Source: a bacterium (GTDB taxonomy: Bacteria; UBA8248). Taken from it: a stretch of DNA of 64,000 nt. The stretch lies in NCBI GenBank assembly GCA_965221655.1, contig OZ244906.1:99633-163632 (forward strand), written 5' to 3'. The position numbers and the translations under genes were made by a program. Shown in pieces: positions 3,044 through 20,943 of this stretch. Each line of letters starts with the position of its first letter. The stretch's first letter is position 1. The notes under the pieces were generated by a model. The model did no database searches and was not told the DNA's origin. It saw nothing but the letters and a program-made list of their open reading frames with translations.

Positions 3044-4189
3044 CTATAGTTTTTGGAGGCCTTGCGCGAGGTCCTCGCGCAGGACGTCGAAGTCTTCGAG
3101 TCCCACCGAATAGCGTATCAATCCCGCCGGAACCCCGCGCCGTGCTGCGCCCTCGTGGCCCAGATCGGCGTAGGCCATGTTGACGTGGTGCTCCGCCTGG
3201 CTCTCCGTGCCGCCGAAGCCGGGTGCGAACGCGGGCACCTCGAGTGCGTCCATGAGGGCGTCGGCCCGTGCGGGGGCGCCTTTCACCTCGAAGCTGAGCA
3301 ACCCGCCGAAGGCGTCCATGTAGCGGGCGGCGCGCGCGTGATCGGGGTGCGAATCGAGCCCCGGGTAGTGCACGCGCGACACCTCGGGGTGGCCCGAGAG
3401 AAATTCGGCGAGCCGCAGAGCCGTTTCGCTGGCGCGGCGCACGCGCAGGTCGAGCGTCTTGAGACCCCGCTCGACCAAAAACGCATCCTGCGGCCCGAGA
3501 ATCGTGCCGAGCAGGGCCTGTTGTTCGCGCAGGGCGTCGATTGTATCGCGCTTGCCCGATACCGCGCCCGCCACCACGTCGTTGTGCCCGCCGATGTACT
3601 TGGTTGCGCTGTGGATCACCAGGTCGGCTCCGTGCTCGATGGGGCGAAACAGGGCGGGGGAGGCGATGGTCGCGTCCACGACGAAGCGCGCGCGCATCTT
3701 TTGCGCCCACGCGGCCATTTGCTCCACGTCGGGTACGCGCAGGGTGGGGTTGGAGGGAATTTCCGCAAACAAAACGCGCGCGGGCGCATCGGGCAGGGAG
3801 TCTTCCGCGTTGTCCGCCAGCACGTCGACGCCCACTCCGTAGCGCGTCAGCAAACCCTCGGCCACGTCGCGCGTGTGCCTGTAGCACTCGGGCGGAACGA
3901 GAATGCGCGCCCCGGGGGCCGAGAGCGCCAGAAACACCGAGGATATCGCACCCATTCCGCTCGCGTAGAGAAGGGAGGCCTCTGCGCCTTCCATATGGGC
4001 GAGGCGGCGCTCGGCCGCGTCGTTCGTGGGGTTGGCGTAGCGCGAATAGAAAAAGGCGTTCTTCTCGCCGCCGTGGAAGGCCGCGAGGTCGGCCGCCGTG
4101 TCGAAGGTGAAGGTGGCGGTCTGGAAAATCGGCGGCGCGAGCGCGTTTTGCGCCTGGCGACGCTCGCTTCGCCTCATGTGGCCGGGCAA
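3044..4189 (-). CDS. Cys/Met-metabolism PLP-dependent enzyme (cystathionine gamma-synthase / beta-lyase / sulfhydrylase family)
   Basis: 381 aa. PLP-lysine motif SATKYIGGHNDVVAG. N-terminal PPIFQTATFTF and YSRYANPT are typical of the family. Confidence 0.85.
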   Translation of the reverse strand: MPGHMRRSERRQAQNALAPPIFQTATFTFDTAADLAAFHGGEKNAFFYSRYANPTNDAAERRLAHMEGAEASLLYASGMGAISSVFLALSAPGARILVPPECYRHTRDVAEGLLTRYGVGVDVLADNAEDSLPDAPARVLFAEIPSNPTLRVPDVEQMAAWAQKMRARFVVDATIASPALFRPIEHGADLVIHSATKYIGGHNDVVAGAVSGKRDTIDALREQQALLGTILGPQDAFLVERGLKTLDLRVRRASETALRLAEFLSGHPEVSRVHYPGLDSHPDHARAARYMDAFGGLLSFEVKGAPARADALMDALEVPAFAPGFGGTESQAEHHVNMAYADLGHEGAARRGVPAGLIRYSVGLEDFDVLREDLAQGLQKL

Positions 4190-4232
4190 CGTGGCGTCTC
4201 CTGTTTCACGGGAGATGAAAACCGAAAGAAAA

Positions 4233-5582
<1,350 letters not shown>

Positions 5583-6963: not shown

Positions 6964-7142
6964 GGACACCTCAGGGTTCGTGGTTGGGCGGTTTCGGGGC
7001 GCACATGGTGCTTGATGGCGCCGCATTCTATATCATGGAAAGGTAAAATGGCACGCGCCCGGAGGTTTTTTCGCGTCGGGTGGCTCGCCTGCCTTTCGGC
7101 GATGCGAGAGAGCGGTCGCCGCACGAGGAGGAGGATTTCGAC

Positions 7143-8480
7143 ATGCAGGCGCCCAGGTTGGCGGCTTCCCACCCCGGCCCCGAAACGCAGCGCGAGCTCG
7201 AGCGGCTGCGCGCGGCCGAGGGACGCGCCGCACTCAGTTTCGGCATGAGCCCTGAGACCGTCGTCGTCGAACGCGCGCGGGGAGCAGTGGTCGAGGACGT
7301 GGACGGCAACGCATTTCTCGATTTCGTCGCGGGCTTCGGTTCGCTGAACGCCGGGCATTGCCACCCCAGGGTGGTGGCGGCGATGCAGGAGCAGGCCGGG
7401 CGGGTGCACCAGGCCATGTCGCTTGGCTCGAGCGTGCGCAACCGCTTTTTGGAAAAGGTGCTCTCGCTCCACTCCGGGGCCACGCCCAAGCGCCTGGTTC
7501 TCGCGACTTCGGGCAGCGAGGCCGCCGAAATCGCCCTCAAACTCGCACGCCGGGCGACGGGGCGCGACGAGATAGTCGGCTTCACGGGCGCGTTTCACGG
7601 CAGAACGCTGGGCGCTGTGGCCCTCATGGGCCGAAAGAACCAGCGCGCGGGGCTGGGGACGCTCGTTCCCGGAATTCACCACGTCCCCTATCCCTACCCC
7701 TACAGAAACCCCTTCGGCGAGGGGGCGGAGGAATGCGTGCGCGGAACCATTGGCTACATCCGCGAGTTTTTGGGCAACCCGGTGAGCGGCTGGGGGGAGG
7801 TGGCGGCGATCATCGTCGAGCCGGTGCAGGGCAACGGCGGCATGATTCCCGCACCCATCGGTTTTCTGAGGGCGCTCAGGCAAGTGTGCGACGAGCACGG
7901 CGTGCTGCTCATCGTGGACGAGGTGATGAGTGGCTTTTGCCGCACGGGCAAAACTTTCGCCTACCAGTACGAAGACGTGGAACCCGACCTGGTCGTAATG
8001 GGCAAGTCGATTGCGGGCGGACTGCCCCTCGCCGCGTGTCTGGCAAAAAAAGAGATTGCCGACGCTTCAGACCCCGGAACCGAGAGCAGCACCTATGCCG
8101 GAAACGTCATGGCCTGCGCGGCGGGGCTGGCCTCCATCGAGGTCTACGAGGAGGAGGGGCTCGCCGAGCGCGCACTGGAGACGGGCGCTTATTTCCTCCA
8201 GAGGCTGGAGGAACTCTCAGAGCGCCATTCCCTCGTCGGCGAGGTGCGCGGGCGCGGGCTGATGGTGGCGATGGAGTTGGTGACCGACCGGGCGACGCGC
8301 GAACCCCTGCCCGTCGCCAAACAGGCGAGCGCGGCCGCACTCGAGAGAGGCCTGCTCGTCTATCCGGGAGGACACCACGGCAACGTCGTGGCGTTCCTCC
8401 CGCCTCTGATCGTCGAGGAGAGCCAGGTCGACGCCGCCGTCGGGGTGCTGGACGAGGTGCTGCTCGAAATCGGCGCCTGA
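7143..8480 (+). CDS. class-III (omega) aminotransferase, GabT/ArgD-like
   Basis: ORF 7080..8480; ATG 7143 is preceded by GAGGAGGAGG. PLP-lysine context DEVMSGFCRTGKTFA. GSEAAEIALKLAR and EPVQGNGG motifs are present. Confidence 0.85.
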   Translation: MQAPRLAASHPGPETQRELERLRAAEGRAALSFGMSPETVVVERARGAVVEDVDGNAFLDFVAGFGSLNAGHCHPRVVAAMQEQAGRVHQAMSLGSSVRNRFLEKVLSLHSGATPKRLVLATSGSEAAEIALKLARRATGRDEIVGFTGAFHGRTLGAVALMGRKNQRAGLGTLVPGIHHVPYPYPYRNPFGEGAEECVRGTIGYIREFLGNPVSGWGEVAAIIVEPVQGNGGMIPAPIGFLRALRQVCDEHGVLLIVDEVMSGFCRTGKTFAYQYEDVEPDLVVMGKSIAGGLPLAACLAKKEIADASDPGTESSTYAGNVMACAAGLASIEVYEEEGLAERALETGAYFLQRLEELSERHSLVGEVRGRGLMVAMELVTDRATREPLPVAKQASAAALERGLLVYPGGHHGNVVAFLPPLIVEESQVDAAVGVLDEVLLEIGA

Positions 8481-12439: not shown

Positions 12440-13325
12440 GAACGCGCGCTCGATAATGAACGCGCAGACGAGGCGCATCGTCATGCTGGCGGTGGACCAC
12501 GGCTATTTCCAGGGGCCGACCTCAGGGCTGGAAGAACCCGCGAAGACTCTCACGCCTCTCTTGCCGCATTGCGACGCCATCAGCCCGACGAAGGGCGTCT
12601 TTTTGCACTGCGTGCCGCCGGAGAGTGCGACGCCCGTCGTCCTGCGGGCTTCGGGCGGCAACGCCATCGTCTATTCCGACCCGGTGGAGCTTGAGCGCGA
12701 GGTGCGCGCCCGCGGAGCGGGTATGGAGGATGAGGGCGCCCTCGCCGCCCTGCGTGCGCAGGTGGCCGAGGACATCGTGAACCGCGAGCTCTCGAACGAG
12801 GGCATCACCGTCTCGGCGGCAGAAGCCGCGCGCCTGGGCGTGGCGGGCGTGTCGGTGTCGATATACGTGGGCGCGCGCTACCAGAAGCAATCCATCCTGA
12901 ATCTCGCGCGCATGAGTGATGAGGGACGCGCGGCGGGCCTGCTCGTCCTGGGCATCACCGCGGTCGGCAAGGAGATGACGCGCGACGCGCGCTACCTCGG
13001 CCTCGCCGCGCGCATCGCGGCGGAGCACGGGGCCGACGTCGTCAAGACCTACTACTGCGAGGGGTTCGAGAAGGTGGTGCGCGGCTGCTTCGCGCCCATC
13101 GTCATCGCGGGCGGCAAGAAGGTGCCCGAACGCGAGGCGCTCGCGTTTTGCCGCCGCGCCATCGACGCGGGCGCGGCGGGTGTGGACATGGGCAGAAACA
13201 TATTCCAGAGCGAACGCCCCCTCGCCATGCTCCGCGCGGTGCGCGGCGTGGTGCACGACGACCTCACTCCCGACGCCGCCTACGAGATGTTCCGCGACCT
13301 GGGCGCGGCCTCCCCGCGCACCTGA
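12432..13325 (+). CDS. class-I aldolase of the DhnA/FbaB/LsrF family
   Basis: ORF 12285..13325; ATG 12432 overlaps the yhaM-like stop (ATGACTGA). Motifs VDHGYFQGP, GADVVKTYY (Schiff-base Lys context), VIAGGKK, GRNIFQ. Confidence 0.75.
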   Translation: MTENARSIMNAQTRRIVMLAVDHGYFQGPTSGLEEPAKTLTPLLPHCDAISPTKGVFLHCVPPESATPVVLRASGGNAIVYSDPVELEREVRARGAGMEDEGALAALRAQVAEDIVNRELSNEGITVSAAEAARLGVAGVSVSIYVGARYQKQSILNLARMSDEGRAAGLLVLGITAVGKEMTRDARYLGLAARIAAEHGADVVKTYYCEGFEKVVRGCFAPIVIAGGKKVPEREALAFCRRAIDAGAAGVDMGRNIFQSERPLAMLRAVRGVVHDDLTPDAAYEMFRDLGAASPRT

Positions 13326-13342
13326 ACGCAGGCGAGCCGTAC

Positions 13343-14380
13343 ATGCCCGAAACGCGCGCCGCCATGCGGGCGGCAGTCTACTACCGAAACGACGACGTGC
13401 GCGTGGAGGAGGTTCCCAGGCCGCGCGCGGGTACGGGCGAGCTGCTCATACGCACGCGCGCCTCTGGCATCTGCGGCAGCGACGTGATGGAGTGGTACCG
13501 CGTCAAGACCGCACCCCGCGTGCTGGGCCACGAGGTGGCGGGCGTCGTGGTCGAGGCGGGTGCGGGGGTGGAGGCGTTTCGCACGGGCGATCGCGTCTGC
13601 GTTACCCACCACGTGCCCTGCAACTGCTGCGACTATTGCCTGCGCGGGCACCACACCGCCTGCGCCACGCTCAAGCGCACCCATTTCGACCCCGGCGGCT
13701 TCGCCGAGTTCATCCGCATACCGGCCATCAACGTGGCGAGCGGGACGTTCCGCCTCCCCGATGAAGTTTCCGACGAGGCGGCCGTGTTCGTCGAACCGCT
13801 CGGCTGCGTCCTGCGCGGCTGGCGCGGCTTCCGGATGACGCCGGGGCTGAGCGTCCTGGTGGTGGGAAGCGGCATGTCCGGGCTGTTGCACGTACAACTC
13901 GCCCGCGCTTTGGGGGCGGGGCGCATATTCGCGGCGGATATAGAACCGTATCGTCTCGAGGCCGCGGCGCGCTTCGGTGCGCATCCCCTCTCCGCGCGAG
14001 AGGACGTGGCCGCGGCTTTGCGCGCGGCGAACGAGGGGCGCCTTGCGGACCGCGTCGTGCTGTGCGCGGGCGCACCCGCCGCTCTCGATACGGCACTGGC
14101 CTGCGCGGCACCCTGCGGCGTCGTGCAGTTGTTCGCCCCCACGCCGCCCGACCACCGCCCACAGATGGACTTGCACCGCATCTGGAGCGAGCAAATCGCC
14201 CTCACCACCACCTACGGCGCAGCCCCGCTCGATTTGCAAGAAGCCCTGGCGATGATTCGCCACCGCCGCGTCGAGGTTGAGGAGATGATTACCCACACAC
14301 TCCCCCTCGCCGACGCCCAGGAGGGTTTTCGCCTCGTCGCCCGCGCGGGCGCATCCCTCAAGGTGGTGCTTCGGCCGTGA
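13343..14380 (+). CDS. zinc-dependent medium-chain alcohol dehydrogenase (threonine/sorbitol dehydrogenase-like)
   Basis: ORF 13148..14380; ATG 13343. Motifs GICGSDV, GHEVAGVV, structural-zinc cysteines CNCCDYCLRGHHTAC, Rossmann VVGSGMSG. Confidence 0.85.
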   Translation: MPETRAAMRAAVYYRNDDVRVEEVPRPRAGTGELLIRTRASGICGSDVMEWYRVKTAPRVLGHEVAGVVVEAGAGVEAFRTGDRVCVTHHVPCNCCDYCLRGHHTACATLKRTHFDPGGFAEFIRIPAINVASGTFRLPDEVSDEAAVFVEPLGCVLRGWRGFRMTPGLSVLVVGSGMSGLLHVQLARALGAGRIFAADIEPYRLEAAARFGAHPLSAREDVAAALRAANEGRLADRVVLCAGAPAALDTALACAAPCGVVQLFAPTPPDHRPQMDLHRIWSEQIALTTTYGAAPLDLQEALAMIRHRRVEVEEMITHTLPLADAQEGFRLVARAGASLKVVLRP

Positions 14381-14414
14381 GGGGGAAATTTGCGCAACTC
14401 CATGGAGGCTGAAC

Positions 14415-15020
14415 ATGGCTCTTTTTCTCGGATACGATCCCGGCGGTAAGGATAAAAATGGTGTCGTTGCGGTTGAAATCGATGAGGATGGAAGCCTCGC
14501 GGGAGAGCCTGAGCATAAAGTTTTGTGTGATGCCGACGAGGTGCGAGACTGGCTGGATGGTTACCTTTCGGCCAAGGCGATAGGGATTGATACGCTACTT
14601 GCCTGGTCTTTCCGAGGCCGTCGCGATTGCGATGATGCACTCCGCGAGCGTTATAAAAAACACGGGCAAACCGTTGTCCAGCAGAATTCTCTTTATAGTG
14701 CAATGACGCTCAACGGCGCCCTCGTTGCCCTGGCTGCCCGGGATCGTGGGCTTCCACTCATCGAAAGCCACCCGAAACTTCTCCTCAAGGCAAACCTGCT
14801 TCCCGGCGACCTGGTTGCTCGCCACAAAAAGTTGAAGAGGGAATACGCTCAAAGAGACCACGTGGCCGATGCGCTTGTCGCCGCATGGTGCGCCTCCCGG
14901 TGGCATTTCAAACGTTGGCGAGTGAACCTTTACGAGGCGTTTGGCGACTCCAAGGCGTTGCACTTTCCGGCGGGAGACGCCTGCTATCCATGGCCGGAGG
15001 CGGTGCCCTGCCCGGACTGA
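14415..15020 (+). CDS. RNase-H-fold predicted nuclease (DUF429-like / RuvC-like), function unknown
   Basis: 201 aa, with GGAGG 6 nt before the ATG. The acidic/His motifs occur in RNase-H-fold order: LGYDPGG, IGIDTLLAW, ESHPK, HVADALVAAWCA. The family call comes from motif pattern only. Confidence 0.6.
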   Translation: MALFLGYDPGGKDKNGVVAVEIDEDGSLAGEPEHKVLCDADEVRDWLDGYLSAKAIGIDTLLAWSFRGRRDCDDALRERYKKHGQTVVQQNSLYSAMTLNGALVALAARDRGLPLIESHPKLLLKANLLPGDLVARHKKLKREYAQRDHVADALVAAWCASRWHFKRWRVNLYEAFGDSKALHFPAGDACYPWPEAVPCPD

Positions 15021-15089
15021 CTTCGTCTTGTCCGTAGGAGGGGTGAATCTTGCGCGGACATACGGGAAGGAATAAAATTTCGTCGAAGC

Positions 15090-15118
15090 TTGAGGTACGT
15101 GGGCAGCAACCCTATTTT
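15090..15118 (+). promoter_or_regulatory. candidate sigma70-type promoter for the 87-aa ORF
   Basis: TTGAGG (15090-15095), 17 nt spacer, TATTTT (15113-15118), within the AT-rich 150-nt spacer. Confidence 0.4.
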
Positions 15119-15171
15119 ATATGAGCGCTTTCATTCATATTTCATAATGATAACGCAAGGGAGAGAAGGTC

Positions 15172-15435
15172 ATGACGGAGTTTGAAGCGGCGTCGCTGTT
15201 GTTCTACGCAATACAGTGCCTGCTCATCTGGACGGGCATCAGGCAGATGGGGCGCGCCTCGGAAAGGCGCGAGAAGGCGGAGACGCAGCGCCACGAGGAG
15301 CTGATGAGTTCCATGGCGCGCGCTTACGAAGCGAATGAAAGAGAGGGAGCACGCCGCCACGAGGAGACGATGGTCTCTCTTAAGGCGATGATCGCATCCT
15401 TAACGGCCATGACCGAGAAGATGGCGCGATCGTAG
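15172..15435 (+). CDS. small membrane-anchored coiled-coil protein with a 22-residue internal repeat, function unknown
   Basis: 87 aa, with GGGAGAGAAGG before the ATG. One N-terminal hydrophobic helix (AASLLFYAIQCLLIWTGI), then a charged helical tail. The 12-mer CGCCACGAGGAG recurs at 15289-15300 and 15355-15366 (66 nt apart), encoding RHEE(L/T)M twice. A strong terminator follows. Confidence 0.6.
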   Translation: MTEFEAASLLFYAIQCLLIWTGIRQMGRASERREKAETQRHEELMSSMARAYEANEREGARRHEETMVSLKAMIASLTAMTEKMARS

Positions 15436-15460
15436 CCTCCACTCCCGCCGGCGCATCGCG

Positions 15461-15493
15461 GCCTCCGTCCTTTGAGGGACGGGGGCTTTTTTT
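15461..15493 (+). terminator. rho-independent terminator ending the islet
   Basis: 10-bp stem: GCCTCCGTCC (15461-15470) pairs with GGACGGGGGC (15477-15486), including one G-U pair. The loop is TTTGAG, followed by T7 (15487-15493). It lies 5 nt before the convergent recD2 stop. Confidence 0.8.
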
Positions 15494-15497
15494 GCTT

Positions 15498-18020
15498 CTA
15501 CTCCTCCACCGGGTGGTAGGTGAGTTCGTCCGCGTCGGGGAAGTCGTCCCCGCTGAGGGGATCGTCCGCATCCGCCGAAAAATCCTCCCCGCCCCCGATC
15601 GCTTCTTCCTCATACACGGAATCGGGCGGTTCGCCCCCTGCGTAGTGGGCGTCGTCGCCCATCGTGTCTTCTTCTGTGGCCGGGGCGGGGGCCGGCGCGG
15701 GGAGGGGCGGGCGGTTCGCCTCGCGGCGGATGCGCTCGGGCAGGCCGCTCCACCGCTGGCGCACGCGTGCGTTGCCCACCGCGATGCCGAGTGCCTTCTT
15801 CGTCCCGACGAGCACGACGAGCCGCTGCGCGCGCGTGAGGGCAGTGTAGACCAGGTTGCGCTGCAGCATCGGGTAGTGCTGGGTGTGAAGCGGTATGACG
15901 ACGGCGGGGTATTCGCTCCCCTGGCTCTTGTGGACGGTGATGGCGTAGGCGTGCACCACCTCATCGAGGGCGGAGCGCGTGTAATCGACGAGGCGCGCGT
16001 CGAAGGCCACGCGAATGCCGCCCTCCTCGGTCGAGACGCTGCGCACGACGCCGATGTCGCCGTTGAACACGTCCTTCTCGTAGTTGTTGCGCACCTGGAT
16101 GACCTTATCCCCGGTGCGGAACGCCCGCCCTCCGCTCTGAAGAGCAGTGCCGCCCGCGGGGTTGAGCGTCTCCTGGAGGCGTCCGTTGAGGCTTTGTACG
16201 CCGAGTACGCCGCGCTGCATGGGGGAGATGACCTGTACGTCCTTTATCGGGTCGAGGCCGAAGCGTTCGGGAATGCGCTCGCGGCACAGTTCGACGAGTA
16301 AGTCCGCGCAGCGCTCCGCCTCGCTCTCCTCGATGAAGTAATAGTCGAGCGGCGCGCCGTCTGCCCCCGGCTTGCCGCCGCGGGGCATCTCGCCGCGGTT
16401 GACGCGGTGGGCGTTCTCGACGATGAGGCTCTCACTCGATTGGCGAAACACTTCCTTAAGCCGCACCACTTTGGGGGTTTCGGAGGCGATGACGTCGCCC
16501 AGCACGTTGCCGGGACCCACCGAGGGGAGCTGATCCACGTCGCCCACCATCACGAGCGTCGCCGCGTCGGGCACCGCGCGGAGCAGATGCGCCGTCAGGT
16601 GCACGTCGAGCATCGAGGCTTCATCCACGATCATGACGTCGGCGGTCAGGGGATTTTCCGCGTCGCGCGTGAAGCCGCCCGCGTGCCAGCTGAACTCGAG
16701 CAGCCTGTGTATGGTGCCTGCCTCGTGTCCCGTCACCTCAGAGAGCCGCTTGGCCGCCCGGCCCGTGGGCGCGCCGAGCACGACCTCGAGGCCGAGTTTC
16801 GCGTAGAGGCTCGTTACGGCGCTCACGATGGTCGTTTTGCCCGTACCGGGGCCGCCCGTTACGACGAGCACCTTATCGGTGAGCGCGCCCTCTATCGCGG
16901 CTCCCTGCGCCTCGTTGGCCACGCCGCCCTCGAGTGCGCGCCGGGCGAGGGCGCGCAGACGCTCGGTGGTGTTGGCCCCCGGTGCGCCCTCACCCCGCAG
17001 GGCGGTTTGCAGGCGCGCCTCATCCCGCGGGCTCTGGATGAGCGTCGCCAGGCGGCGGGCGACCTCGCACTCGGCCGCGTAGAGCGGGCGCGCGTAGACG
17101 CGCTTGTTCGCGGAGGAGGAGAGGTTTTCGCTCAGGTGGGCCGATTCGATGACCAGCGAGCCGCCCTTGCCCAGACCGTCCAGGGTCGCGGCCAAGGCGT
17201 CCTCTTCCGTCTCGAGCATCTCGGCGGCGGCCTCGACCAAATCGGCGTAGGGCAGGAAGGAGTGCCCCTCCTGCTCGGCGAGTTGGTTCAGCACGTAGAA
17301 GGCGCCGGCCTCGAGCCGCGCGGGGGCGTCGGCGGGAATTCCCAGACGGCGGGCGATGCGGTCCGCACTCTTGAAGCCCACGCCGTGAATCTCCGCCGCC
17401 AGTCGATAGGGGTCGCCGCGCACCACCTGAATGGCGTTCGCGCCGTAGGTTCTCAGAATCTTCTCCGACAAATGGAGCGGAACGTCGTATTGCCGCAGGA
17501 AGAGCATGATCTCCTTGACCTCGCTCTGGCTCTTCCAGCTCTCCACGATGCTCTCGAGCTTCTTCGCCCCCAGGCCGTTCACCTCCTGCAAGCGTTCGGG
17601 TTGGTTGTCGAGCACGTCGAGTGATTTCTCGCCGAAATGCTCGACGATGCGCCGGGCCAGGGCGGGGCCGATGTTCTTGATGATGCCCGAGGCGAGGTAT
17701 TTCTCGATGCCCTCAAGCGTGGTGGGCGGCAGGGGGTTTGCGCTTTGTGCGTGAAACTGGCGGCCGAAGCGGGGATGCTCCTTCCAGTCTCCCGCGAAGC
17801 GCACGCGCTCGCCCTCGCGGATGGAGGAGAGGTGGCCCACCACGGCCACGCGCGCGAAATCCGCGTTGTCGGGCTGTACGAGCAGCACGCTGTAGCCCGT
17901 GTCCTCGGCGCGAAAGCGAATCCGCTCCACCGTGCCGACGAGCTCGCCGCCATCTGCCGGAAACAGTCGCCCCTGGGGGGGCTGTGCTGCGGGGCGGCGT
18001 GTTGCGGGCTTGCGCGTCAT
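15498..18020 (-). CDS. recD2: RecD2-type SF1B ATP-dependent DNA helicase
   Basis: 840 aa. Walker A VTGGPGTGKTT, DEASMLD, VGDVDQLPSVGPG, TVHKSQGSEYP. N-terminal OB/HhH region. C-terminal PAPAPAPA linker plus an acidic tail. Confidence 0.9.
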   Translation of the reverse strand: MTRKPATRRPAAQPPQGRLFPADGGELVGTVERIRFRAEDTGYSVLLVQPDNADFARVAVVGHLSSIREGERVRFAGDWKEHPRFGRQFHAQSANPLPPTTLEGIEKYLASGIIKNIGPALARRIVEHFGEKSLDVLDNQPERLQEVNGLGAKKLESIVESWKSQSEVKEIMLFLRQYDVPLHLSEKILRTYGANAIQVVRGDPYRLAAEIHGVGFKSADRIARRLGIPADAPARLEAGAFYVLNQLAEQEGHSFLPYADLVEAAAEMLETEEDALAATLDGLGKGGSLVIESAHLSENLSSSANKRVYARPLYAAECEVARRLATLIQSPRDEARLQTALRGEGAPGANTTERLRALARRALEGGVANEAQGAAIEGALTDKVLVVTGGPGTGKTTIVSAVTSLYAKLGLEVVLGAPTGRAAKRLSEVTGHEAGTIHRLLEFSWHAGGFTRDAENPLTADVMIVDEASMLDVHLTAHLLRAVPDAATLVMVGDVDQLPSVGPGNVLGDVIASETPKVVRLKEVFRQSSESLIVENAHRVNRGEMPRGGKPGADGAPLDYYFIEESEAERCADLLVELCRERIPERFGLDPIKDVQVISPMQRGVLGVQSLNGRLQETLNPAGGTALQSGGRAFRTGDKVIQVRNNYEKDVFNGDIGVVRSVSTEEGGIRVAFDARLVDYTRSALDEVVHAYAITVHKSQGSEYPAVVIPLHTQHYPMLQRNLVYTALTRAQRLVVLVGTKKALGIAVGNARVRQRWSGLPERIRREANRPPLPAPAPAPATEEDTMGDDAHYAGGEPPDSVYEEEAIGGGEDFSADADDPLSGDDFPDADELTYHPVEE

Positions 18021-18069
18021 GGGTCGTTCCTGCTCGTTTCGGGGCGGGCGGTGTTGCGGCTGCTTAGGA

Positions 18070-18903
18070 TTAGGCGCCTCTCTCGTGCGCCTTCGCTTCG
18101 TTCCAAAGGGCTTCGAGCTCCTCGGGCGATACCTCCTCGGGCGAGAGCCCCCTGGTGCGCAGGGCGTCTTCTATGTGGTGAAAGCGCGCGGTGAAGCGCG
18201 CGACGGCGGCGCGGGCCGCACCCTCTGCATTCACGCCGAGTTTGCGGGCGAGGTTCACGGCGGCGAAGAGAAAATCGCCCATCTCCTCCTCGAGTGCCTG
18301 CGCGTCGCCCGTGCGCATCGCCGCTCCGAGTTCCGCCCATTCCTCCTCCACCTTGTCTGCCGCCCCCGCGGCGTCGGGCCAGTCGAACCCCACGCGCGAG
18401 GCCTTTCCCTGAAGCCTCTGGGCGCGCTGTAAGGCGGGCATGGCGGCCGGCACGCCGTCGAGAATGGAGGCGGCCTCGTTCTTCGCCCCGGAGCGGACCT
18501 TCCTCTTGTTGATCTCCCAGTTCCTGAGCACCTCGCCGCTGGTGTCGGCCGGGGTGTCCCCGAACACGTGGGGGTGGCGGTCGACCATCTTCTGGGCGAG
18601 GGCGCGGGCCGTTTCGTCGGCGTCGAAAAGCCCTTGTTCCTCGGCGAGGCGGCAGTGAAAGAGCACCTGGAGGAGCAGGTCGCCCAACTCCTCTTTCAGC
18701 ATGTCGGGGTCGCCCGCCTCGACGGCCTCCATCACCTCGTAGGCTTCTTCGACGAGGTAGGGCTTGAGGGTGTGGTGGTCCTGTTCCCTGTCCCAGGGAC
18801 AGCCGTCGGGCGCCCGGAGGCGGGCCATCACCTCCACGGCGCGCTCGAAACCGCTTTTCTTCTCGCTCAAGGCGCACCTCACGTGCGGGGAATTCCGGCG
18901 CAC
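18070..18903 (-). CDS. mazG: nucleoside triphosphate pyrophosphohydrolase MazG
   Basis: RLRAPDGCPWDREQDHHTLKPYLVEEAYEV...ELGDLLLQV, and a second MazG repeat EEWAELG...EEEMGDFLFAAVNLAR. GTG start at 18903. Confidence 0.9.
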   Translation of the reverse strand: MRRNSPHVRCALSEKKSGFERAVEVMARLRAPDGCPWDREQDHHTLKPYLVEEAYEVMEAVEAGDPDMLKEELGDLLLQVLFHCRLAEEQGLFDADETARALAQKMVDRHPHVFGDTPADTSGEVLRNWEINKRKVRSGAKNEAASILDGVPAAMPALQRAQRLQGKASRVGFDWPDAAGAADKVEEEWAELGAAMRTGDAQALEEEMGDFLFAAVNLARKLGVNAEGAARAAVARFTARFHHIEDALRTRGLSPEEVSPEELEALWNEAKAHERGA

Positions 18904-19054
18904 CGAAGTATACGCGCAACCCCCGGTGCGGGCAACGAGGCGGGTTGCGGCGGGGCGGCCGGCCCCGCCCGAGGCGCTCGGTTCCTACAAAGGGGTTTTA
19001 GCCCATGATATAGGATGATTTGCACGTGCAGACACAAAATATTGTGGTTTGCGC

Positions 19055-19083
19055 TTGACATATCGCGCCAAATGATGGAAATT
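19055..19083 (+). promoter_or_regulatory. candidate promoter for mutL
   Basis: TTGACA (19055-19060), 17 nt spacer, GAAATT (19078-19083), in an AT-rich divergent intergenic region. The -10 element is weak. Confidence 0.3.
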
Positions 19084-19113
19084 GCACTTTTGACGGCCCA
19101 TGAGGAATTTCCC

Positions 19114-20943
19114 ATGCAACGAACCTCACGCATACGCGTCTTGCCCGAGGCGCTCGCCAACCAGATAGCCGCGGGCGAGGTGGTGCAGCGCCCCGCATCG
19201 GTTTTGAAGGAACTCCTCGAGAACAGCATCGACGCAGACGCCGCGCGGGTGGAGATCGATCTCGAATCCGGCGGGGCGTCGCGCGTGCAGGTGGTGGACG
19301 ACGGCTGCGGCATGGGCGCTGACGACGCGCTGTTGTGCCTGGAGCGCCACGCGACGAGCAAGATAGCGACGGATGCGGACTTGGGCAGCGTCACCACCCT
19401 GGGCTTTCGGGGCGAGGCGCTGCCGAGCGTCGCGGCGGTCTCGAAGATGACCATCACTACCAGAAGGCCGGAGGATGCCCTCGGCGTGGAGGTGCGCGTG
19501 GAGGGCGGAAGGGTAAAGCGCGTAACCGAGATGGGGGCACCCGCGGGCACCCGGATGGAGGTGCGCTCCCTGTTCTACAACGTGCCCGCGCGGCGCAAGT
19601 TTCTCAAGAGAAGGGAAACGGAGCTGGCCCGCTGCCTGGAGGTGGCCCACCAGGCGGCGATGGCGAACCCCGGAGTCGCCTTCGTCCTGCGCCACGGCAA
19701 GCGAGTGCTGCTCGACGTGGACGCCTCGGCAGACGCCCGCAGCCGCGCGGCGGAGCTCGTGGGTGCGGCTGCCGCGGAGCATTTGCTGGAAATTCCGCGC
19801 GCAGCATCCGGCGAGATGACGTTCGGCGGCTGGGCGGGTGCGCCGAGTCTGCACCGCTCCACGCGCGACGCGCAGTATCTGTTCGTGAACGGGCGCCCCA
19901 TTCGGGATCGCCTCTTCGTCCACGCGGCGTATGCGGCCTACAGAAGCTTTATGCCGGTGAAGCGGCATCCCGTCTTCATCCTGTTTCTCGACATGCCGCC
20001 CGGGGACGTGGACGTGAACGTCCACCCCGCCAAGCAGGAGGTGCGCTTTCGCTTCGCCCCGGGCGTCTACGAACTGGTGCGCGAGAGCGTGGCCGCCGTC
20101 CTGGGGGCGCGGCCCGAGCCGAGGAGGAGTTTTGCCCCGCCGGGCCGCGTGGCGCCCGACTACGCACGCGCGGGCGGCGCGCAGACGGCGGATGCTCCCC
20201 GCTCGCCCGCACTGGTGAGCGGCGGGGGATACTTCGGCGGGCAGACGCCTGCCCCCGCCGGGCCGCCCCCGGTCGCGCCTCCCCCCGTGGATGCGCAGCA
20301 GCAAGAGGCGCCCGCACCTTTTGCGCGCATGCTGGAGCCACCCCATCCCGCCGACCCCGTGGTGCTCTCCGAGTGCCGCTACCTCGGCCAGTGGGAGCAA
20401 TGTTTCCTGCTGTTCGCCTCTCCGCAGGGGCTCGTGCTCGTCGACCAGCACGCCGCCCACGAGCGGGTGCTCTACAACCGGTTTCGCGATCAGTTCCGCG
20501 AAGGCCGCGTGGAGAGCCAGGCTTGTCTAGTGCCCGAGGAGGTTCGCCTCAGACCCGAGGAGGCGCTGGTCATCGAGGCGCACCACGACGATTTGCTGCG
20601 CTCGGGCTTCGAGCTCGAAAGCGCGGGGCCGGGCGCATACCACGTGCGCGCCGTACCCGCCCTCCTGGCGGACAGGGACCCCGCGGGGGCGGTGCGCCGC
20701 ATCGTCGAGAGTCTGGCGGAGGTCGAAGGCCCGGTGAGTTTTGCCGATCTGATAGACGGCATCATTGCGCGGATGAGCTGCCGCGGCGCGGTGAAGGCGG
20801 CCCGGGCCATGCGCTCCGAGGAGGTGGCCGCTCTGGTCGCCGAGCTGGAGAAGACGCCGGGCCGGTGGACTTGCCCGCACGGGCGGCCCATCATGCTGGT
20901 CATGGGCGCGGAGCCCGTGCGGAGACGCTTTTTGCGCACCTGA
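19114..20943 (+). CDS. mutL: DNA mismatch repair protein MutL
   Basis: ORF 19015..20943; ATG 19114 gives MQRTSRIRVLPEALANQIAAGEVVQRPASVLKELLENSIDA (GHKL ATPase motif I). C-terminal dimerisation domain has ...QHAAHERVLY. Confidence 0.9.
   Translation: MQRTSRIRVLPEALANQIAAGEVVQRPASVLKELLENSIDADAARVEIDLESGGASRVQVVDDGCGMGADDALLCLERHATSKIATDADLGSVTTLGFRGEALPSVAAVSKMTITTRRPEDALGVEVRVEGGRVKRVTEMGAPAGTRMEVRSLFYNVPARRKFLKRRETELARCLEVAHQAAMANPGVAFVLRHGKRVLLDVDASADARSRAAELVGAAAAEHLLEIPRAASGEMTFGGWAGAPSLHRSTRDAQYLFVNGRPIRDRLFVHAAYAAYRSFMPVKRHPVFILFLDMPPGDVDVNVHPAKQEVRFRFAPGVYELVRESVAAVLGARPEPRRSFAPPGRVAPDYARAGGAQTADAPRSPALVSGGGYFGGQTPAPAGPPPVAPPPVDAQQQEAPAPFARMLEPPHPADPVVLSECRYLGQWEQCFLLFASPQGLVLVDQHAAHERVLYNRFRDQFREGRVESQACLVPEEVRLRPEEALVIEAHHDDLLRSGFELESAGPGAYHVRAVPALLADRDPAGAVRRIVESLAEVEGPVSFADLIDGIIARMSCRGAVKAARAMRSEEVAALVAELEKTPGRWTCPHGRPIMLVMGAEPVRRRFLRT

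Follow-up and report, generated by a model that had tools for sequence, protein, structure and literature searches.

Two short genes on the same strand lie in a stretch of low G+C content between a zinc-type alcohol dehydrogenase (ADH) gene and the convergent recD2 helicase gene of an uncultured bacterium (GTDB lineage UBA8248; assembly GCA_965221655.1, contig OZ244906.1, positions 99,633 to 163,632). These 64,000 nucleotides are referred to as the window, and all coordinates are those of the window except where they follow an L number, which designates a locus of another genome. Gene 1 (14415-15020, 201 amino acids) and gene 2 (15172-15435, 87 amino acids) fall, together with their leaders and a terminator, within positions 14381-15497. 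In a preliminary description, which located both open reading frames (ORFs) correctly, they were taken for a nuclease and a tiny membrane protein acquired together as a toxin-antitoxin, abortive-infection or other defence module. The locus raises the question whether the two genes belong together at all. Comparison with related genomes revealed that they do not: what lies between the conserved genes here is a slot of variable content and not a new defence system.

Genes 1 and 2 vary independently at the ADH-recD2 junction

The junction was compared in 11 related genomes that share the HD-DeoC-ADH / recD2-mazG-mutL synteny, a part of which were collected with the ADH protein as the probe. Both genes, gene 1 followed by gene 2, are present in the window, in L113 and in L118. 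In L115 and L119 gene 2 is missing, and the recD2 stop codon comes directly after gene 1. Gene 2 stands without gene 1, in one to four tandem copies, in L001, L003, L004, L005, L080 and L125. One copy was counted in L003, two in L001, L002, L080 and L125, and four in L004 and L005, none of them together with gene 1. Gene 1 is present in 5 of the 11 syntenic genomes and missing from 6, complete chromosomes among the latter. An initial search had returned four database relatives of gene 2; wherever their context was checked, the slot contained a small gene between DeoC-ADH and the reversed recD2-mazG pair, and no gene of the DUF429 family, to which gene 1 belongs. The closest relatives of gene 1 also occupy the ADH-recD2 slot, in other members of the clade.

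What distinguishes an occupied site from an empty one is a clean, gene-sized segment, approximately 660-700 nucleotides long, located between the ADH stop codon and the promoter motif of gene 2. In empty genomes CCGAATCTTGCGG begins 3-14 nucleotides past the ADH stop codon. In occupied genomes the CCGAATCTTGCGG motif is preceded, in this order, by a leader of 32-41 nucleotides that contains a Shine-Dalgarno site, by the ORF of gene 1 and by a further 15-30 nucleotides.

Genes 1 and 2 vary independently among the relatives, and the co-occurrence and joint inheritance that would define a two-gene module were not observed across the genomes. The idea of a co-acquired module is not supported, since at the same junction six relatives have only gene 2 and two have only gene 1. 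The alignment of the junctions that had been proposed in the preliminary description confirmed gene 1 as a presence/absence element, but the 1.1 kb does not come and go as a unit: gene 2 follows its own pattern, from 0 to 4 copies.

The low-GC patch is composite

The G+C content of positions 14381-15497 is 56.6%, compared with 66.7% for the whole window and 66.7±2.5% for windows of the same length, among which this segment is the single minimum. The dip is visible in a 200-nucleotide profile as well. The sharp drop described earlier is real, and the four hand counts reported for it (29/60, 26/60, 25/60 and 43/60) were all exact on recount.

The dip has three separate causes. In gene 1 the G+C content of third codon positions (GC3) is 0.589, as against 0.852±0.041 for 19 true-frame ORFs of the window (z approximately -6.4); codon positions 1 and 2 are normal and the anomaly is confined to position 3. 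The 19 reference ORFs were filtered by hand, a census of the longest ORFs having been dropped because it was contaminated by wrong-frame ORFs. The spacer of about 150 nucleotides between the two genes, an AT-rich promoter and leader region, has a G+C content of 45.7%. The GC3 of gene 2 (0.795) is host-like, and the gene is low in G+C content only through the amino acid composition of its product.

Gene 1 encodes a DUF429 protein with a RuvC-like predicted fold

Gene 1 belongs to DUF429, a known family whose function is uncharacterised. The match of its product to the Pfam profile PF04250 (32.1 bits, cut-off 23, E = 1.2e-7) passes the gathering threshold and is partial: residues 8-93 align with profile positions 3-79 of 214, which is the N-terminal 40% of the model. 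Precomputed PF04250 matches exist for most homologues of gene 1. DUF429 was previously placed in the RuvC/YqgF clade, among the RNase H-like endonucleases, and its members were described as mostly single-domain, uncharacterised and unlikely to be mobile (Majorek et al. 2014, PMC3985635). In the literature found, the sole DUF429 domain with a reported biochemical activity is that of MSMEG_5849 of Mycobacterium smegmatis, which is stated to have RNase HII activity (PMC4429107).

The AlphaFold2 model of the gene 1 product, built on an alignment of 91 sequences, has a predicted local distance difference test score of 95.5 and a predicted template modelling (TM) score of 0.92. It starts with strands formed by residues 2-8, 15-22 and 33-37, which are followed by a helix and a further strand (residues 55-58). 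The best match among PDB entries in a Foldseek search was Deinococcus radiodurans RuvC (7w8d; E = 7e-4, probability 1.0, TM-scores 0.44/0.56). Lower-ranking matches were integrase cores of retroviruses, the resolvases MOC1 and those of poxviruses, the RNase H domain of UvrC and terminase nucleases, and in a viral structure library RuvC-like resolvases were the best matches to the model. Strand 1 and the C-terminal helix both carry carboxylates, and this feature together with the fold places the protein in the RuvC-like clade of the RNase H-like superfamily. Asp8 in strand 1, Asp59, Asp73 and Glu117 are invariant over 91 homologues; His119 and Asp152 are conserved in 99% and Asp148 in 89% of them. 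Because its conserved acidic residues have a RuvC-like arrangement, the protein is predicted to be, very probably, an active Mg/Mn-dependent nuclease. The nuclease fold assumed for gene 1 in the preliminary description is thus supported by the Pfam match and by the RuvC-like model.

Searches of PDB sequences, performed with the single sequence (phmmer) and with the 91-sequence profile, yielded chance-level matches only. Nothing meaningful was obtained from NCBIfam and PHROGs for gene 1 or gene 2, the only matches being sub-threshold, low-complexity ones for gene 2. Identification of gene 1 as a RuvC orthologue was considered and rejected, as there was neither a PDB sequence match nor an NCBIfam RuvC match.

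Among the longer family members no informative domain fusion was seen, except in one protein with a C-terminal Unstab_antitox segment. This protein (P0327, 313 amino acids) consists of a gene-1-type domain followed by Unstab_antitox (PF09720), and is either a true fusion or a merged call with an adjacent antitoxin gene.

Gene 1 homologues are sporadic and have varied neighbours

The gene 1 family is rare: at E≤1e-3 it comprises 699 clusters (50% identity) among 1.84 billion proteins. Approximately 30 further homologues with genomic context are scattered over Rhodobacterales, Arenicellales, Acidobacteria, Rhizobiaceae and other groups. They are often lower in G+C content than their flanks, and the best match outside the clade of the window is less than 60% identical to gene 1. 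No conserved neighbour of gene 1 was found across these ~30 genomes, and a search for a small hydrophobic ORF downstream of the homologues returned only spurious-looking ORFs in the same set. Gene 2 is therefore not a conserved partner of gene 1, an outcome that the preliminary description had itself named as speaking against its module.

Homologues of gene 1 were found neither in 50,697 phage records nor in the IMG/VR viral contigs. Among 72,556 plasmids there was one, in L120, a megaplasmid of Ruegeria sp. TM1040 (NC_008043.1, 92141-92704), where it bears the annotation DUF429 domain protein. The L120 copy directly follows a short tyrosine recombinase gene, with a DUF3800 gene and an IS3 transposase gene nearby.

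Several homologues lie next to genes of defence systems. A PDC-M23B/HamB-like helicase (E = 0), HerA (E = 2e-145), LmuB (E = 2e-38) and Ppl (E = 1e-31) were identified as neighbours at L088, L095, L104 and L109. Further defence-type contexts were found in L116 and L124, with a DUF4365-TPR protein accompanied by an AAA_21 ATPase, and with an AAA_15/21 ATPase, BrnA and T5orf172/Mrr_N. Defence or mobile-element genes adjoin the homologues in roughly a quarter of the ~30 contexts, as a raw share. When 91 family members were compared with PADLOC-DB v2, 51 matched the model PDC-S44 weakly (best E = 4e-8) and no other PADLOC model was matched. Gene 2 had no PADLOC match, and neither gene matched the model of a validated anti-phage system.

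One locus, L123, contains a canonical DUF429 gene (3716-4477, 253 amino acids) and a gene-1-type homologue (7001-7633) 2.5 kb apart. The presence of both types in L123 indicates that the two DUF429 branches coexist as paralogues. The L123 pair lies near a DDE transposase gene and a DUF3368/UPF0175 toxin-antitoxin pair.

The host clade consists of uncultured metagenome-assembled genomes (MAGs). L125 (GCA_026706735.1) is labelled Nitrospinae bacterium, and L004, L005 and L113 are complete chromosomes labelled 'MAG: bacterium'. Several isolate or contig names resemble those of sponge-microbiome MAG sets, which suggests, on the names only, a possibly sponge-associated origin. Many gene 1 homologues come from MAGs with such names (e.g. 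the STY2 and RHO bins), which hints that gene 1 circulates within a sponge-type habitat.

Gene 1 diverges faster than its flanks at a fixed slot

Trees of host genes resolved three deep lineages: the window; L115 with L119; and a core clade of L113, L118, L001, L003, L004, L005 and L080. Gene 1 is present in all three, and in the family tree the junction copies, together with three relatives from short contigs, are monophyletic. The junction copies being one clade with members in all three lineages, they represent a clade-specific lineage tied to this slot and not a one-off recent import.

The junction copies of gene 1 are 57-71% identical to each other, as against 73-97% for ADH and recD2. 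Between L115 and L119 the identity is 90% for RecD2, 85% for ADH and 71% for gene 1. By these comparisons gene 1 is estimated to evolve about three times faster than its flanks. Identity at four-fold degenerate sites distinguished two situations. Between L115 and L119 it is 0.72 for gene 1, 0.78 for ADH and 0.82 for recD2, and this similarity implies that gene 1 was inherited together with its flanks there. Between L113 and L118 it is 0.37 for gene 1 and 0.70 for ADH, and here the low synonymous-site identity implies gene 1 alleles far older than the flanks. For the core clade the sequences indicate turnover or replacement of alleles at a fixed slot, plus at least two losses. Separate recent insertions in every carrier, taken as a general model, were ruled out by the synonymous-site identity of gene 1 with its flanks in L115/L119 and by the monophyly of the junction copies.

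The GC3 of gene 1 was determined in all five carriers (window 14415-15020, L113:6001-6621, L115:5001-5609, L118:3952-4542 and L119:2994-3611). It is 0.44-0.65, as against 0.79-0.92 in the flanks, which amounts to a deficit of 0.25-0.37 that is seen in every carrier, even in the co-inherited L115/L119 copies, and roughly tracks the GC3 of the host. Since all carriers have the deficit and it follows the host, it is persistent and not simply unameliorated. The composition of the patch had been taken as the mark of an islet of 1.1 kb. The accessory status and atypical composition stand for gene 1; the islet as a whole does not, as gene 2 is native and the junction copies of gene 1 are clade-specific.

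Every copy of gene 2 comes with a conserved promoter motif and a terminator

The 87-residue product of gene 2 has a single hydrophobic helix at its N-terminus, followed by a helical tail that is charged and carries RRHEE-type repeats. Because of its positive-inside pattern it is inferred to be a membrane-anchored helical protein that faces the cytoplasm. A tiny membrane protein, as gene 2 had been called, fits both its size and the single predicted hydrophobic helix. Alignment of 15 copies revealed an invariant N-terminal segment (MTxF...QC.LI..G..QM), a charged linker rich in Arg and Glu, the RRHEE element, heptads of the type (V/T)M(K/N)NH(A/E)E(T/S), which number 0-5 per copy, and the conserved end SMTALKTLIERTAK. 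A profile search with gene 2 returned 758 unnamed proteins of 48-161 amino acids without a Pfam domain; one of these bears the label Nitrospinae bacterium and comes from L125, which has the same synteny. A distant member of the family sits elsewhere, downstream of a MarR gene.

Homologues of gene 2 occupy the same ADH-recD2 slot in nine relatives. On the sequences compared, gene 2 is best described as a lineage-specific gene that is native to the junction and varies in copy number (0-4). In the relatives every copy is preceded by the very strongly conserved motif CCGAATCTTGCGG-N17-TAGTGTTTTA, then by a leader of about 95 nucleotides of one of two sequence types (e.g. L003:5947-6066), and is followed by a CCGCCYCCGTCCTYCGGGACGGGGG-T-run terminator. 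The gene 2 of the window keeps the motif and the terminator; its leader differs and is AT-rich. The promoter and leader region extends from 15021 to 15171, with a good Shine-Dalgarno site, GGGAGAGAAGG (15159-15169), as had been noted before.

The window version of the motif, GAATCTTGCGC, is located at 15045-15055. It includes TTGCGC (15050-15055), which is followed by a 17-nucleotide spacer and TAAAAT (15073-15078). This TTGCGC-N17-TAAAAT element (15050-15078) aligns with the conserved motif of the relatives and fails a strict sigma-70 scan. It is a better-supported candidate for the gene 2 promoter than TTGAGG-N17-TATTTT (15090-15118), the promoter-like element proposed earlier, which did not survive the sigma-70 scan (0 sites as against 0.4 expected). 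The intrinsic terminator (15460-15494; 12-pair stem at 15460-15487 followed by T7, -26.3 kcal/mol) is the strong hairpin that had been described. Its interpretation as the border of an islet has to be given up, since it belongs to the conserved gene 2 cassette.

In type A leaders a CCAUGG...CCAUGG hairpin was seen with wobble changes only, as was a short upstream ORF starting with M(E/G)RE(A/V)MEFRR, which in some copies overlaps the start of gene 2 or shares its frame. We do not claim a structured RNA in the type A leader, because the hairpin changes are one-sided and none is compensatory.

Tandem arrays of gene 2 are located at L004:7027-8802, L005:7027-8931, L080:7015-7984, L001:5859-6841, L002:1-992 and L125:5521-6195; the counterpart in the window is 15021-15497. 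With the number of gene copies and the number of internal repeats both variable, the locus changes rapidly at two levels. The second cassette of L001 (6452-6800) keeps its promoter motif and terminator and has a frameshifted or degenerate ORF; it appears to be a decaying duplicate.

Flanking genes and borders

By Pfam the neighbours encode an HD/OB protein, a DeoC-family aldolase, zinc-type ADH, RecD2, MazG and MutL. The ADH gene (13343-14380, plus strand; ADH_N, ADH_zinc_N) is the last conserved gene of an HD/OB-DeoC-ADH operon and is 78-81% identical to the syntenic gene of the relatives. The recD2 gene (15498-18020, minus strand; HHH_RecD2, OB_YrrC, AAA_30, SH3_13, UvrD_C_2) lies outside the patch, with its stop codon at 15498-15500; the terminator of gene 2 ends three bases before it. 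RecD2 and MazG are 77-78% and 82-85% identical to their syntenic counterparts, respectively.

Gene 1 is preceded by a leader of 34 nucleotides (14381-14414) with GGAGG at 14404-14408, six nucleotides before the ATG, in accordance with the good Shine-Dalgarno site reported. In 5/5 carriers the leader has 32-41 nucleotides and ends in such a site. The sigma-70 and terminator scans found neither a terminator nor a promoter-like site between ADH and gene 1. Because no such signal separates them, gene 1 is likely to be co-transcribed with ADH.

Gene 1 lies between the two copies of an imperfect ~20-bp direct repeat (14375-14395 and 15032-15055, 19/24 matches). A general repeat search had missed it, as it is gapped, and local alignment with shuffling was needed; its score was attained by 7/2000 and 20/5000 shuffles. 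The left copy overlaps the ADH stop codon and lies where the gene 2 promoter motif is located in relatives lacking gene 1. L119 has a marginal counterpart (67/2000 shuffles) that matches its own empty-site sequence, and by the same test no flanking repeat was found in L113, L115 and L118. A target duplication might explain the repeat, or the repeat might be a substrate for deletion. Terminal inverted repeats were not found around gene 1.

The window has no tRNA gene, and the neighbours include no integrase, in agreement with the preliminary description; of the hallmarks of a classical genomic island or mobile element (an integrase or transposase, a tRNA target, terminal repeats) none was found, the imperfect direct repeat being the only repeat. 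Rfam 15 covariance models gave 0 matches at E≤1 in positions 13000-19500.

Discussion

We moderately favour the explanation that the locus consists of two independent cassettes, gene 1 being a stand-alone accessory RuvC-like nuclease, plausibly related to genetic conflict, and gene 2 an unrelated small-protein gene. We have high confidence in its structural part, namely that the two cassettes are independent, that gene 1 encodes a RuvC-like nuclease of the DUF429 family and that gene 2 is native. The intergenic slot that the two cassettes share, bounded by ADH and the convergent recD2, would be a variable one. Gene 1, equipped with a Shine-Dalgarno leader only and probably read through from the ADH operon, would be dispensable, present or absent at exactly this position within the clade, and its alleles, which in part of the clade seem to be older than their flanks, would have turned over at the fixed slot. 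It may act as a solitary conflict-type nuclease, related to the PADLOC candidate PDC-S44, that cuts structured nucleic acid of invaders, such as branched DNA or RNA:DNA hybrids. This functional part is tentative, and our confidence in it falls somewhat below even. Gene 2 would be a self-contained unit of promoter motif, leader, ORF and terminator that varies independently of gene 1.

Several observations weigh against this explanation. Defence neighbours make up roughly a quarter of the contexts, as a raw share, and most other contexts of gene 1 consist of ordinary metabolic genes. In the host clade gene 1 has no defence neighbours and stands in the context of a housekeeping operon, and at least in L115/L119 it was co-inherited with its flanks; this context and the co-inheritance would also fit a non-essential housekeeping nuclease. 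PDC-S44 is itself a computational candidate only, which the window protein matches with E = 2e-4 and in its N-terminal half only. The persistent GC3 deficit of gene 1 is not accounted for. The likely co-transcription with ADH is deduced solely from absent promoter and terminator signals. A defence-type role of gene 1 by itself is nevertheless plausible.

The adjacency of the genes on the same strand, repeated in L113 and L118, their single terminator and their common position within the low-GC patch are what one horizontally acquired toxin-antitoxin, abortive-infection or defence module, with a nuclease effector and a membrane partner, would look like. We consider such a module highly improbable. 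Gene 2 occurs alone in six relatives and gene 1 in two; gene 2 has a conserved promoter motif and terminator of its own, a host-like GC3 and no PADLOC counterpart; and about 30 homologues of gene 1 elsewhere have neither a gene-2-like ORF nor a conserved neighbour. It is just as hard to credit that the whole 1.1-kb patch arrived in a single recent horizontal acquisition as a classical unameliorated islet, even though no stretch of its size in the window is lower in G+C content and its borders, the ADH stop codon and the terminator, are sharp: throughout the clade gene 2 is conserved in synteny together with its promoter motif and terminator, and its GC3 is host-like, the gene 1 copies are monophyletic and present in all three deep lineages with a GC3 that follows the host at a constant deficit, and no match outside the clade reaches 60% identity. 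Gene 1 alone could be a selfish or site-specific cassette, a homing-type nuclease or an element inserted by recombination, that repeatedly invaded this intergenic target. The ~20 bp direct repeat in the window, with its left copy at the position of the empty-site motif, and the marginal repeat of L119 matching its own empty-site sequence argue for this, as do the gene-sized insert with only ~35 and ~20 nucleotides of flank, the L113 and L118 alleles that are far more diverged than ADH, and the unameliorated GC3 of all carriers. This explanation is nevertheless improbable, given the lack of a flanking repeat in L113, L115 and L118, of terminal inverted repeats and of a nearby recombinase, the single copy per locus and the vertical inheritance of the L115/L119 copies. 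The homologues of other phyla lie in unrelated sites and so share no common target, and DUF429 was judged unlikely to be mobile (Majorek et al., PMC3985635).

The main rival is a non-essential housekeeping nuclease, either of the RNase H type acting on R-loops and RNA:DNA hybrids or a resolvase of branched DNA, which would serve replication and repair in the host itself and might work with recD2-mazG-mutL. The sole DUF429 domain with a reported activity, that of MSMEG_5849, is of the RNase HII type (PMC4429107), and the fold of gene 1 is RuvC-like. The gene has a fixed position downstream of a housekeeping operon and beside DNA-repair genes in five genomes, it was co-inherited with the flanks in L115/L119, and the searches of phages and viral contigs were empty, with one plasmid copy only. 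However, six of the 11 syntenic genomes lack gene 1, complete chromosomes among them; its orientation, convergent to that of recD2, precludes co-transcription of the two; and the adjacency to recD2 is not seen outside the clade. A housekeeping role also has to accommodate the roughly threefold faster evolution, core-clade alleles that predate their flanks and a sporadic distribution across phyla with frequent GC mismatch. The Pfam match spans the N-terminal 40% of the model, so that transfer of function from MSMEG_5849 is weak. On balance we regard the housekeeping nuclease as unlikely, and prefer two independent cassettes with gene 1 as an accessory nuclease.

A bolder extension is doubtful but would be of wider interest. 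The gene 1 subfamily, with its ~700 clusters, may represent unrecognised single-gene RuvC-like nucleases directed against phages or plasmids, maintained in this clade at a single fixed position of the chromosome as long-lived presence/absence and allele polymorphisms and possibly entering by ~20 bp target duplication, while the gene 2 arrays would separately be a new, rapidly expanding small-membrane-protein locus. If gene 1 were a solitary defence nuclease, this would be the first function for a divergent branch of DUF429 and a compact effector of ~200 amino acids, and the allele turnover at a fixed slot would be a tidy case of gene persistence in uncultured bacteria, possibly sponge-associated if their names are a guide. 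The residual novelty may lie in a possible defence role of the DUF429 branch, in the fixed-slot allele turnover, in the GC3 deficit and in the expanding gene 2 arrays; the arrays and the deficit are minor curiosities. At present the locus is of value mainly as negative knowledge: a GC dip, two adjacent small genes and one terminator can mimic a module, and presence/absence at a syntenic junction is a cheap comparative test against that reading.

Comparison with known systems

Type I toxin genes can form tandemly duplicated loci that encode small hydrophobic proteins. The gene 2 loci resemble them in the small ORF with one hydrophobic helix, the own promoter, the long leader, the terminator and the variable number of tandem copies. 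Typical type I toxins are smaller than the gene 2 products, which have 64-97 amino acids and a long charged helical tail. In the search with Rfam 15 (13000-19500) neither an antisense RNA nor an Rfam family was found for gene 2, and the hairpin of its leader has no compensatory support.

PDC-S44, a candidate for single-gene phage defence, is a solitary gene like gene 1 and is the only PADLOC model matched, by 51/91 family members including the window protein. The matches are weak (E = 2e-4 for the window protein, 4e-8 at best) and confined to the N-terminal region of the model (6-91 against 11-99 of 259).

Among proteins of known structure RuvC of D. radiodurans (PDB 7w8d/7xhj) is the best match to the gene 1 model. 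The RuvC-like carboxylates of gene 1 are Asp8 in strand 1, Glu117 after strand 5, and Asp148 and Asp152, which belong to a DHxADAL motif of the C-terminal helix. There is no detectable similarity to RuvC in the PDB sequence searches, the TM-scores are low, and the root-mean-square deviation is 6.6-7.9 Å. The gene 1 product exceeds RuvC in length by ~45 residues, and further residues are invariant in it (Asp59, Asp73, Arg70, His119, Trp46 and Trp168), which sets it apart from RuvC orthologues.

MSMEG_5849 (MS_RHII-RSD; RNase HII activity as cited in PMC4429107) has a domain of the same Pfam family as gene 1, the likeness being one of family membership. Its DUF429 domain is fused to a RelA/SpoT synthetase domain, whereas gene 1 stands alone.

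The nearest relatives of gene 1 are the DUF429 proteins themselves (PF04250; COG2410/COG4328/COG4923), which share with it the single-domain architecture, the length of ~200 amino acids and the conservation of acidic residues both in strand 1 and in the C-terminal helix. Gene 1 differs from them in matching profile positions 3-79 of 214 only, which marks it as a member of a divergent subfamily. The genomic context of the family was reported to be conserved (Majorek et al., PMC3985635), whereas the gene 1 subfamily shows presence/absence variation and varied contexts, and a gene of this type can, as in L123, share a genome with a canonical DUF429 paralogue.

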